Positions 38,355 to 63,049 of a stretch of DNA of 64,000 nucleotides are shown here, piece by piece. A program made the translations under genes and the position numbers. The stretch comes from a virus (taxonomy: Duplodnaviria; Heunggongvirae; Uroviricota; Caudoviricetes): the IMG/VR virus record IMGVR_UViG_3300042563_002362. One strand, 5' to 3'. The first letter of the stretch is position 1. Each line of letters begins with the position of its first letter. The notes beneath the pieces were generated by a model that saw nothing but the letters and a program-made list of their open reading frames with translations, did no database searches and had not been told where the DNA came from.

Positions 38355-38383
38355 TTTACATCGGTCCGGTTTCCGTTTATAAT
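38355..38383 (+). promoter_or_regulatory. Early promoter TTTACA-N17-TATAAT with A-rich UP element; leaderless
   Basis: ATG 38390 lies 6 nt after the -10 box. Confidence 0.85.
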
Positions 38384-51750: not shown

Positions 51751-51844
51751 CTTATTGAAAATCAGTGTTTTGACGATTTTTGACGAAAAAAAGTGAAAAT
51801 TTGTGAAAAAAGATATTTACATCGGGTAGGTTTCCGTTTATAAT
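51748..51844 (+). promoter_or_regulatory. Early promoter cassette: IHF-like motif, UP element, TTTACA-N17-TATAAT (51816-51844)
   Basis: Spacer tcgggtaggtttccgtt is similar to those at 38355 and 63021. Confidence 0.85.
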
Positions 51845-51871
51845 GATCTTGTAAGGAAACCACTACAATAT

Positions 51872-52057
51872 ATGACTGAAGCTGCTAAAATCGCCCGCAA
51901 GAATCTGATCGCCGAAATCGCCAAACGCCACGCCGCTGAGCGCGAGTTCGTAAAATCTGTCTCCGTCAAGGAGTCGACCGGCACCACTGCCGAACATGAC
52001 ACAATCATTGCTGAAGAATTTGAACGCCTCGAAAAGGCCAGCGTGATCCTCAGCTAA
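51872..52057 (+). CDS. Early hypothetical protein
   Basis: 61 aa, first gene after the promoter cassette. Confidence 0.7.
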   Translation: MTEAAKIARKNLIAEIAKRHAAEREFVKSVSVKESTGTTAEHDTIIAEEFERLEKASVILS

Positions 52058-52089
52058 TCCTCAATCCTCAATCATTCACTCAATACATT

Positions 52090-52245
52090 ATGTCCATTTA
52101 CATTATTGCTGCTTCCTTTATCGGCTATCTTTTTCCGGAGTTTCTTAGAATGATTGCTCCTCGGAATTACACCGTCCCTTGGCTAATGAAAGCGCAGTGC
52201 GCTTTCATTGGAGCTGCGGTTGCACATTATCTTCTTACTCACTAA
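52090..52245 (+). CDS. 51-aa membrane protein
   Basis: Manual translation MSIYIIAASFIGYLFPEF..., two hydrophobic segments. Confidence 0.55.
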   Translation: MSIYIIAASFIGYLFPEFLRMIAPRNYTVPWLMKAQCAFIGAAVAHYLLTH

Positions 52246-52332
52246 TCAATACGAGCGGCAATCATCAGCGAGCTGCGTGCTGAACTTCATGCCGCGGTCG
52301 ACAACATCGAAATCTAAAATACACACTACATT

Positions 52333-52521
52333 ATGAAAACCAAAGGATTCACCTTCATCGAACTTCTTATCACGCTTGTGATTGCCGCCATCGAACTTCT
52401 TATCACTCTTGTGATTGCCGCCATCGAACTTCTTATCACTCTTGTGATTGCCGCCATCACCCTCATTATAAAGTTCTTCCGTCCAAAAACAATCGTTCCT
52501 AACATTGAGGTTCAAAATTGA
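52333..52521 (+). CDS. Prepilin-like peptide (class III signal) with a triplicated hydrophobic segment
   Basis: MKTKG|FTFIELLITLVIAA; IELLITLVIAA occurs three times. Confidence 0.7.
   Translation: MKTKGFTFIELLITLVIAAIELLITLVIAAIELLITLVIAAITLIIKFFRPKTIVPNIEVQN
52357..52455 (+). repeat. Three tandem 33-bp repeats without spacers
   Basis: atcgaacttcttatcac(g/t)cttgtgattgccgcc at 52357, 52390 and 52423. Confidence 0.95.
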
Positions 52522-52522
52522 T

Positions 52523-52669
52523 ATGAAACGCCTTGCACAAAATTCCCTTGAGATGCGAAACCTTACCCGTCATCGCATGCCATCTCCTACGTTTTCTTTC
52601 AAAGACCGTAAGAAGGAAATGAAGCGCAAGGCTTGCCGTAAGAAAGACTATAATTATGTATCCAAGTAA
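52523..52669 (+). CDS. 48-aa highly basic peptide
   Basis: Manual translation MKRLAQNSLEMRNLTRHRMPSPTFSFKDRKKEMKRKACRKKDYNYVSK. Confidence 0.55.
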   Translation: MKRLAQNSLEMRNLTRHRMPSPTFSFKDRKKEMKRKACRKKDYNYVSK

Positions 52670-52856
52670 CCAACGACGAATGTGCAACACTCCACGTGAG
52701 GAGCTACATGAAAGCGACTACACTACGCGTATCGAACGCTCACCTTCAACTGGATCAAAAGAACGCATTACACGCTTCAAAGATGGGTCTTCAATTTGGC
52801 ATGGTGGCATGGGAGGTCCTGATATGCACTTTGACGAGTATGGCGAGGAATGTTAA
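52656..52856 (+). CDS. Hypothetical protein
   Basis: ORF track; tiles with its neighbours. Confidence 0.55.
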   Translation: MYPSNQRRMCNTPREELHESDYTTRIERSPSTGSKERITRFKDGSSIWHGGMGGPDMHFDEYGEEC

Positions 52857-52868
52857 ATAATTAAAACC

Positions 52869-53558
52869 GTGGGAATGTTCGATTACTTTCAGATTGAGGT
52901 GTCTCTCCTACCGACGGTTCCAAGCGAACTGAAAGTAGGAGAAGATGACCGCTTTACTTTTCAGACAAAAGACACATCAATGCAAGCGATGTGTGTATAC
53001 ATCCAAGAGCGCGGCCAGGCGCTGAAGCTCAAACGAACTTCAGGTGAATGGGTTCCAGGTGAACCTGCCGATGAAAACGCTGACTTCTTTAGCAGTCTTT
53101 CATCTCTTGGATCATATGTCGTAAAGGAAACGTGGTATGAGGACCAGGATATCAATAACGTCATCACATTTTACACCGATTTGGCACACTGTGACAGTGA
53201 TGGAACTGATAGGTACGTCTCTGGGTGGATTGAATATAATGCGGTGTATCGCAACGGTATTCCTGTTTGGATAACGGTTTCCGATTATACCAAACCAACA
53301 ATTCTTAGTGATGATCAGCTACATGAACGTGAAGAATTGTTTCAAGCCTCGAAACGTGATGCACTGGAAAGGATGATTGATCGTAGGATGAATGCGCCTA
53401 CGGCTCAAGAGCATATTATTGATTTAATTGATCAGCTTGCAAGCAACAAACTTTCATTATATGATGAAACGGATTTAGCTAAAGCGCTAAATGATATAAC
53501 AGCAATAATTAAAGAATATAGGAACAAACATGATCCACACTACAAACAACAAAGATGA
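52869..53558 (+). CDS. Phage hypothetical protein
   Basis: MGMFD...FQTKD N-terminal pattern seen in phage hypothetical proteins. Confidence 0.65.
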   Translation: MGMFDYFQIEVSLLPTVPSELKVGEDDRFTFQTKDTSMQAMCVYIQERGQALKLKRTSGEWVPGEPADENADFFSSLSSLGSYVVKETWYEDQDINNVITFYTDLAHCDSDGTDRYVSGWIEYNAVYRNGIPVWITVSDYTKPTILSDDQLHEREELFQASKRDALERMIDRRMNAPTAQEHIIDLIDQLASNKLSLYDETDLAKALNDITAIIKEYRNKHDPHYKQQR

Positions 53559-53706
53559 AGGTCTCTATGAATTTAGAGGCAAACAATTTACATGTGACGC
53601 CGATACAATTCGACGTTTGAACTATGCATTAGCATTAAATGATAGCGATGAAAGATATGTCACTGTTGGCAATTTAATCAAAGAAAACGATGGCGGCGAC
53701 AAATGA
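53530..53706 (+). CDS. 58-aa hypothetical protein
   Basis: Manual translation MIHTTNNKDEGLYEFRGKQF... Confidence 0.5.
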   Translation: MIHTTNNKDEGLYEFRGKQFTCDADTIRRLNYALALNDSDERYVTVGNLIKENDGGDK

Positions 53707-53971: not shown

Positions 53972-54239
53972 CATCATCATCAGCGAAGGCTGTACTGCTT
54001 TCTACACTGACGTGAATGGAAAGACTGTTGGCGGGAGCTATGAACCAACACGATTGACGGACGAAGAAGAAAACGAATTGGTTGACTATCTTCTAATTAA
54101 AGTTAAGGAAGGTATCACAGACGGCGAGATTGATCTTAACGCATTGATTGGTCTTTTTCAATATGATGACTATGAGACAGACGACACGTCATGTGAAACA
54201 TGTGGAGATTCCGTAAGCCGAACAATTTACAACATATGA
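53955..54239 (+). CDS. Hypothetical protein with a C-terminal CxxC
   Basis: CETCGD motif. Confidence 0.6.
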   Translation: MTPKYNIIISEGCTAFYTDVNGKTVGGSYEPTRLTDEEENELVDYLLIKVKEGITDGEIDLNALIGLFQYDDYETDDTSCETCGDSVSRTIYNI

Positions 54240-54631
54240 GTTACAATTTATTTCTCGATGATGTCCGCATGCCTAAAGATGGATACCTATATGATCAAAA
54301 GGTAGATCTATGTCAAGCAAGCAACATTCACAACTGGGTAATTGTCCGCGACTATGATGAATTTACATCTATGATTCGTAATGGTGGTATTCCAACAGTT
54401 GTCTCGTTTGACCATGATCTTCATTTTGAACATATGCGACATTACTATGATGTAACGTCAGTTTGCGGAGTTGTTGAATACGGCAACTTGAAGTATAAGA
54501 CTGGACTGGCATGCGCGCAATACTTGATTGATGCATGCCGTGAAAAAGATGTCCCACTTCCACGCTGCTATGTTCATAGCGCAAATGAATGGGGTCGAGA
54601 AAACATTAAGAAACTACTTGGGATAGTTTGA
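54236..54631 (+). CDS. Cyclic-phosphate-processing receiver-like domain protein
   Basis: LFLDDVRMP, VRDYDEF, VSFDHDL, KTGLACAQYL, VHSAN. Confidence 0.75.
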   Translation: MSYNLFLDDVRMPKDGYLYDQKVDLCQASNIHNWVIVRDYDEFTSMIRNGGIPTVVSFDHDLHFEHMRHYYDVTSVCGVVEYGNLKYKTGLACAQYLIDACREKDVPLPRCYVHSANEWGRENIKKLLGIV

Positions 54632-54641
54632 TGCTTTCTTG

Positions 54642-54669
54642 TTTACATTTGTGTATAAGTATTTATAAT
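54642..54669 (+). promoter_or_regulatory. Early promoter TTTACA-N16-TATAAT
   Basis: 8 nt from the -10 box to ATG 54678. Confidence 0.7.
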
Positions 54670-62953: not shown

Positions 62954-63049
62954 TAACTTATTGAAAATCAGCGTAAATTGTGAAATTTTGAACTTTTTTC
63001 ACAATTTACGCATTTTCTTGTTTACATCGGTCGGTTTTCCGTATATAAT
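62954..63049 (+). promoter_or_regulatory. Early promoter cassette: IHF-like motif plus TTTACA-N17-TATAAT (63021-63049)
   Basis: gtaacttattgaaaatcag is identical to the copy at 51747. Confidence 0.85.

Follow-up and report, generated by a model that had tools for sequence, protein, structure and literature searches.

A truncated, repeat-expanded mini-pilin gene of a T4-like lake phage and its possible role as a pilin-stalk mimic

An uncultured T4-like phage of lake water carries an open reading frame (ORF) of 62 amino acids that combines the N-terminus of a type IV prepilin with a long hydrophobic helix, in which an 11-residue unit is repeated in tandem. Judged by profile alignment and gene order, the ORF is a truncated, repeat-expanded positional ortholog of a family of phage mini-pilins typified by an 83-amino-acid protein. 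A sequence-only reading of this DNA had taken the ORF for a purpose-built decoy with a triplicated pilin helix; this does not hold for a positional ortholog that has lost the most conserved part of its family. The ORF is quite possibly a real gene, descended from mini-pilins, whose product still acts as a mimic of pilin stalks and may plausibly interfere with type IV pili or type II secretion. New here are the repeat-lengthened stalk, its polymorphism and its origin as a truncated derivative. Interference by phage pilin stalks is a hypothesis already in print (PMC12952977) and is here applied to a new case.

Phage-made pilin look-alikes are an emerging route by which host pili may be reshaped or shut down and rival phages kept out. 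About 84 short mini-pilins from T4-like phages of lakes and other habitats share a strongly conserved helix that is not of the pilin type. A natural series, which runs from full-length proteins to tail-less ones with two, three or four helix units and on to a start-less gene, offers a direct means of finding out which of the parts of a mini-pilin are important.

The phage and the neighbourhood of the ORF

The window, i.e. the whole stretch of 64,000 nucleotides that was analysed, comes from a phage whose DNA polymerase matches phrog_262 and is 44–47% identical to the polymerases of Kyanoviridae. Metagenome runs from lake water or freshwater, at least 17 of them and probably for the most part from one campaign, contain DNA of the window. 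All credible genes are on the + strand, and reverse-strand ORFs at 52246–52515 and 52326–52505 were set aside as by-products of the repeat. Lysogeny genes were not seen within the window, an observation that covers the window alone and does not establish virulence. The ORF is situated in a region of phage replication and small genes, which includes the DNA polymerase, a MazG-like gene, a primase-like gene and small ORFs; pilus or secretion assembly genes are not found near it. Table 1 gives the features of the locus.

A megablast search of positions 51800–53600 gave no match among cultured phages. IMG/VR gave no match to the core of the repeat, and a metagenome contig collection gave none to the conserved 25-nt upstream anchor; contigs of this phage are evidently absent from both, and these results therefore have no bearing on its rarity. 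A search of IMG/VR for related loci with a 229-aa neighbour protein likewise found none.

Table 1. Features of the mini-pilin locus in the window
Feature	Position	Strand	Basis or remarks
Sigma-70-type promoter cassette (TTTACA, 17 nt, TATAAT)	51816..51844	+	11 of 12 consensus positions; heads the transcription unit that holds the ORF
61-aa gene, left anchor of the slot	51872..52057	+	Product 74% identical to that of L010 5060–5248; present in many relatives
Non-coding remnant, 3′ end (~66 bases, last ~22 codons) of a 110-aa gene deleted here	52252..52317	+	Identity to sibling contigs
Headless prepilin-like ORF (truncated mini-pilin), 62 aa	52333..52521	+	Profiles; AlphaFold2; exact protein in 43 contig blocks
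Class III signal, leader M-K-T-K-G followed by F1-T2-F3-I4-E5	52333..52362	+	PF07963; TIGR02532; hhalign
Three in-frame 33-bp tandem units, each I-E-L-L-I-T-L-V-I-A-A (11 residues)	52357..52455	+	Tandem Repeats Finder; copy number polymorphic
Short tail, P-N-I-E-V remnant of the family P-Q-V-E-T; C-terminal helix missing	52456..52518	+	Alignment; family column counts
48-aa basic gene, right anchor of the slot	52523..52669	+	Product 65% identical to that directly after the 83-aa mini-pilin in L010

The small genes around the ORF differ in how they are distributed. The 48-aa protein is very basic, with the motif F-K-D-R-K-K ... A-C-R, and is kept in many relatives (L010–L013, L019 and L021). In related phages its gene lies directly downstream of the 61-aa gene or of a mini-pilin gene, and in one sibling lineage (L005–L008) it is deleted. 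A hydrophobic 51-aa ORF at 52090–52245, between the 61-aa gene and the mini-prepilin, has no family match; it is conserved in the sibling lineage (L005 288–443) and missing from L010. At 54200–54631 is a 143-aa protein that matches phrog_1479. Its counterparts in L002, L094 and L095 carry the Pfam domain cREC_REC and are found a few genes downstream of the mini-pilin slot.

Expression signals

The promoter cassette upstream of the 61-aa gene belongs to a 29-nt sequence (TTTACA, a spacer with GGTTTCCG, then TATAAT) that is present three times in the window, at 38355–38383, 51816–51844 and 63021–63049, each time just upstream of a gene start. Positions 51794–51871 are also aligned by contigs from other parts of the genome. 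In being dispersed, the cassette recalls the promoter-early stem-loops by which genes are shuffled among T4-like phages. On the + strand, a terminator-like site was not found between the 51816 promoter and the next promoter of this type at 54642. An early operon, as first proposed for the ORF, is consistent with the early-type promoter and the uninterrupted unit and is a reasonable reading of the sequence, but early and middle timing are not separable.

A Shine–Dalgarno sequence was not recognisable upstream of any of the 81 listed + strand gene starts. This absence is phage-wide, and evidence from ribosome sites is therefore uninformative for the ORF. Structural genes have a motif of the ATAAATA type, which resembles a late promoter, only about 10–15 nt before the ATG (e.g. 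upstream of 5667, 8462, 11181, 28057 and 31619). Together, the spacing of this motif and the missing Shine–Dalgarno sequences would imply that leaders are very short and that translation in the host can start without such sequences. In an RNA-library run (X20), contigs of a related phage extend over the 61-aa and 48-aa genes and over just the last 24 bases of the ORF.

A prepilin signal and helix without a pilin head

Prepilins insert into the inner membrane with the leader on the cytoplasmic side, and the prepilin peptidase PilD/GspO cuts them after Gly-1. Glu5 and the hydrophobic alpha-1N segment serve in recognition by the assembly machinery and in packing within the filament core.

The ORF product has a basic leader of five residues that ends in Gly-1; Phe is the first residue after the leader and Glu the fifth, and the hydrophobic run extends to residue 49. 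It scores above the curated cut-offs of two profile libraries, with 28.1 bits for Pfam PF07963 N_methyl (cut-off 21.2) and 26.4 for NCBIfam TIGR02532 IV_pilin_GFxxxE (cut-off 16.3). With the family alignment, AlphaFold2 models a single unbroken helix from residue 8 to residue 48, at a pLDDT of about 97, which is followed by a disordered tail of 14 residues; the globular alpha-beta head of pilins is absent from the model of the 62-residue protein. Both the class III signal with its Glu5 and the lack of a globular domain, which had been read from the letters, are thus upheld. A structure search of the ESM Atlas returned pilins, all of them matches of the generic long-helix type. With phmmer, nothing meaningful was found among solved structures, and in PHROGs the ORF was without a match at E 0.01; up to E 10 the matches were only weak ones, to small, pilin-like families. 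PHROGs also includes small families with pilin-like N-termini and no assigned function (phrog_13280, phrog_11263 and phrog_10597).

The mini-pilin family and the ancestry of the ORF

Eighty related phage loci were collected by way of the neighbouring primase-like gene. One of them, L010, whose primase is 74% identical, has an 83-aa gene that lacks the repeat and whose product begins with the leader M-K-L-K-G and then F-T-L-V-E-L-L. Orthologs of the two anchors flank the gene, that of the 61-aa gene upstream and that of the 48-aa gene directly behind it, and it thus occupies the slot of the ORF; the window differs in having the 51-aa ORF and a gene remnant between the two anchors. In L094 and L095 the order of the region is that of the window, with DNA polymerase, PRA-PH, primase-like gene, small ORFs, mini-pilin and cREC_REC. 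A mini-pilin gene lies within 4 kb of the primase in just one of the 80 relatives.

The 83-aa protein (P0004) has 20 close relatives, and a profile made from these matched 92 representatives among 1.84 billion proteins, most of them 70–94 residues long. All genomic contexts that were read are clusters of small genes that share a strand, on phage or phage-like contigs. In an alignment of 84 short members, 53 have Gly and 14 have Ala at position −1, and Phe1, Thr2 and Glu5 are kept by 72, 79 and 80, respectively. A variable linker leads to the C-terminus, where a Pro is followed by A-R-S-Q-R and then R-Q-N-D-L, the Asn being present in all members but one (83/84). For a full-length member AlphaFold2 gives two helices, residues 8–34 and 44–82. 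Against solved structures the family profile has its best matches, through the N-terminus, in the Geobacter 'geopilin domain 1' and type IV pilins (E = 0.003–0.05) or GspG. A tblastn search of phage records with P0004 gave chance-level matches alone (E ≥ 0.4), and one of these, inside a 420-aa Dolichospermum phage protein, was dismissed.

The remaining 17 of the 84 members have Asn, His, Lys or a gap at −1 in place of Gly or Ala, with Phe1, Thr2 and Glu5 retained. Cleavage is thus not universally needed in the family, which argues against incorporation into a filament for those members. Such variants are compatible with an inhibitor that acts in the inner membrane and is possibly uncleavable. 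One sub-clade (P0008–P0012, P0014–P0020 and P0023; e.g. L091 5001–5252) has Asn or His for Gly-1 and a three-residue leader, and retains Phe1, Thr2 and Glu5. Its members are presumably not cleavable by prepilin peptidase.

The ORF aligns to the family profile with a probability of 96.5% (hhalign, E = 7e-10) over residues 1–20 only. Its start follows the family pattern of K-G/A and then F-T-L-I/V-E-L-L-V, and it sits at the position of the L010 gene in a region ordered as in L094 and L095. The R-Q-N-D-L helix is missing, with P-N-I-E-V alone left of the tail. The stop codon (52519–52521) is one base before the ATG of the next gene at 52523, and it follows that the DNA for the family helix was deleted in the ORF and not frameshifted.

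Decay of the gene in a sibling lineage

The closely related lineage L005–L008, seen in five samples, has 4.1 copies of the repeat. Its sequence matches that of the window without a difference in the 95 bases that precede the ORF, but in the next 22 bases it has ATA for ATG, GAA for AAA (Lys-2 to Glu) and GCC for TTC (Phe to Ala). An in-frame stop codon is present six codons upstream. With the start codon changed to ATA and a stop upstream, the prepilin start is gone in this lineage. In addition, a deletion of about 290 bases has taken the 3′ end of the ORF, the whole 48-aa gene and the start of the gene after it. A start-less sibling without a 3′ end indicates that the gene is dispensable and can decay.

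The window has had a loss of its own. The remnant upstream of the ORF is identical to the end of an ORF of 110/123 aa that is intact in L005–L008, and a homolog of the 110-aa gene is found near the mini-pilin gene of L090 (4200–4535). Since the window has lost the 110-aa gene, and the sibling the 3′ end of the ORF together with the 48-aa gene, the region is a gene-loss zone in both lineages.

The sibling also bears on the meaning of the repeat. A four-copy array in a lineage with a broken gene indicates that the array expands regardless of gene integrity. The expansion looks like replication slippage under relaxed constraint and not like a tuned number, and weak constraint is also suggested by the tolerated lengths of the membrane helix, 22, 33 or 44 hydrophobic residues. 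A tunable repeat count had been proposed for the ORF. The variation it presupposes is found in nature, as two, three and four copies, but the growth of the array in a broken gene speaks for slippage and not for tuning.

Active mimic, remnant or membrane peptide

How might such a protein act? The ancestor would have been a mini-pilin of ~80 residues, in which a class III signal and a membrane helix of the pilin type are joined by a short linker to a charged C-terminal helix that presumably faces the periplasm. In the lineage of the window, the C-terminal helix would have been deleted first, and an 11-codon piece of the membrane helix would then have been duplicated by replication slippage, to give two, three or four in-frame copies. 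The product is predicted to insert into the inner membrane in the manner of prepilins, where the host prepilin peptidase may recognise it and possibly cut it after Gly-1. The headless stalk could then take up the peptidase or the assembly platform at the expense of host pilins or pseudopilins, or could enter a filament and stall it. Type IV pili or type II secretion would be damped in the infected cell, perhaps to the exclusion of rival phages. The number of repeats would be a tolerated by-product of slippage and not calibrated. Of all this, gene anatomy, signal, polymorphism, family, synteny and loss of the tail are observed, and translation, membrane insertion, processing and any action on pili or secretion are inferred.

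That the ORF is a real gene with a still-active product of this kind is the reading we prefer, tentatively and with slightly more doubt than confidence. In its favour are the signal above curated cut-offs in two libraries, the positional orthology, the promoter cassette, the persistence of the ORF and the precedent in other phages. Against it stand the loss of the best-conserved segment of the family, with which the ancestral activity may have gone, the tolerated changes in copy number and the decay of the gene in the sibling lineage.

The same ancestry could instead have left a decaying remnant without a selected function, its frame kept open by the chance of deletion and slippage. This is a serious possibility, though one to which we give less credence. 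The near-invariant C-terminal helix has been lost, and in the sibling the start codon, the Lys and the Phe have changed and ~290 bases have gone while the array grew to four copies. The gene remnant at 52252–52317 shows that the region sheds DNA, and the family is patchy, as seen in its presence near the primase in a single relative. Against a remnant, start codon, Lys-Gly leader, Phe1, Thr2 and Glu5 are intact, the ORF is tightly packed against the next gene, and the exact protein is present in 43 blocks of assembled contigs, with runs dated 2016 and 2023–2024. Moreover, truncated pilin stalks are kept in virulent phages (PMC12952977).

A generic membrane-active peptide unrelated to pili, be it viroporin-, holin- or antiholin-like or another superinfection-exclusion protein, would also account for a small hydrophobic product. 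The modelled helix is continuous over 41 residues at high confidence, and one of its faces carries a stripe of Glu, Thr and Ala, spaced i, i+4, i+8 and i+11 in the sequence, by which the peptide could form oligomers that depolarise the inner membrane or make it permeable. In favour of this explanation, T4-type phages have Imm, Sp and RI, all of them small membrane proteins made early. Nevertheless it is unlikely. The N-terminus is not merely hydrophobic but specifically pilin-like, above curated cut-offs; Glu5 is near-universal among the family members counted above; and PHROGs gave no match to a holin or lysis family at E 0.01.

The 33-bp array

Tandem Repeats Finder reports a period of 33, 3.1 copies and 98% matches at 52356–52458, in agreement with the threefold IELLITLVIAA that had been described. 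The unit begins at 52357, 52390 and 52423 and occurs nowhere else in the window; shuffled sequences are expected to have none. Its copies have a single synonymous difference, ACG versus ACT, both of which encode Thr. Three copies are the common allele, L005–L008 have four and L004 has two, the latter by a clean 33-bp deletion that yields a 51-aa protein. A word-based search of proteins of 34–109 aa found just the three-copy, the two-copy and the start-less four-copy forms. The same three-copy ORF was recovered from a freshwater run of 2016 and from lake-water runs of 2023–2024.

If the repeat were functional, the acidic residues might form a 'Glu ladder' on the headless stalk. With every unit of 11 residues the helix would grow by three turns and its acidic face by one Glu, and the ladder could engage at once the N-terminal amines of several host pilins, or the peptidase or platform. 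Slippage would supply a length series of inhibitors, of which the start-less four-copy lineage would be a loser. The phage population would then gain, if this is true, ready-made inhibitors of differing length and strength against the type IV filament systems of its hosts. The alignment of the three Glu on one face, as originally put forward, agrees with arithmetic (11 residues at 100 degrees leave an offset of 20 degrees per unit), but the structural model supports helicity only. We regard a functional repeat as improbable. The triplication is most likely a tolerated product of slippage and for that reason does not, by itself, reveal a new mechanism.

It is very improbable that the array is an element at the DNA or RNA level, such as protein-binding iterons or a structured RNA, to which the ORF is incidental. 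By inspection, ATCAC...GTGAT forms an inverted repeat of 5 bp in each unit, and the sibling lineage with the broken ORF keeps the array and has it even longer. The fold energy is nevertheless ordinary (z = −0.55), a search of the region against Rfam gave no match, and the unit is confined to this site in the window. The L010 relative carries the gene without any repeat. Furthermore, the period is divisible by three and the unit consists of copied codons of the pilin-like helix.

Copy number was checked against Logan contigs, in which a two-copy allele gives no 31-mers beyond those of a three-copy allele. In runs X1 and X17 the 31-mer contigs are interrupted at 52404, 52375–52425, 52396–52437 and 52429. 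A simulated de Bruijn graph of the three-copy allele reproduces these breaks exactly, and a simulated two-copy allele on its own gives one unbroken contig. A 42-nt unitig at 52396–52437, which needs at least three copies, was found in X1 and X14. Mixtures of the two alleles would show in unitig depths alone, and these disagree from one unitig to another, being 0.9 times the flank depth for one unitig and 0.5 times for another in X14. The array is called real on the basis of the identical protein in 43 contig blocks and of a break pattern that equals that of the simulated three-copy allele. Short-read assemblers can miscount tandem repeats, but an assembly artefact is scarcely credible here, given an array of 99 bp that is shorter than a typical read, an identical ORF in all of those blocks (the three contigs that were read come from three different samples), the 42-nt unitig and the matching breaks.

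Comparison with known systems

With type IV pilins and pseudopilins (PilA, GspG and the short Geobacter PilA-N), the ORF product shares the class III signal, Phe1, Thr2, Glu5 and a hydrophobic alpha-1N. It differs from them in having neither an alpha-beta head nor a partner PilA-C, in the absence of nearby pilus or secretion genes, in being phage-encoded and in a hydrophobic helix of roughly double the usual length.

PfsE of Pf phages and Tip and Aqs1 of Pseudomonas phages are small proteins with which phages switch off type IV pili and so prevent superinfection. PfsE is a tiny inner-membrane peptide. None of the three is known to be pilin-like, and they act on PilC or PilB. The ORF product resembles them in small size and in its proposed action on pili, and homology to them is not expected.

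The closest likeness is to the mini-pilin family itself (P0004–P0105). The ORF sits in the slot of the L010 gene, agrees with the family in the leader and the first 20 residues, comes from a similar phage and retains P-x-x-E from the linker motif; it is without the R-Q-N-D-L helix and has 22 extra helix residues contributed by the repeat.

Among phage mimics of pilins, only a full-length FimU mimic has to our knowledge been tested so far. The P-FimU mimics of prophages are incorporated into pili and block phage adsorption (Sztanko et al., Cell Rep 2026, PMC12952977). Database searches have in addition found truncated PilA-like proteins of ~60 N-terminal residues in six virulent Pseudomonas phages, and these are proposed to join or inhibit the pilus (PMC12952977). 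Headless prepilins in phages had been suggested as an object of search; a tblastn search of 50,697 phage records with the 62-aa ORF gave no match, and PilA-like stalks exist in these six phages. Like the truncated P-PilA proteins (PMC12952977), the ORF product is phage-encoded, has ~60 residues and consists only of a prepilin signal and a helical stalk; the role proposed for it is also the same, to join or block the type IV pilus against other phages. The likeness is architectural only, as the ORF has no detectable sequence relation to cultured phage proteins in those records. Unlike truncated P-PilA, the ORF goes back not to a host PilA but to a family whose C-terminal helix is not of the pilin type, and its stalk carries a polymorphic 33-bp repeat.
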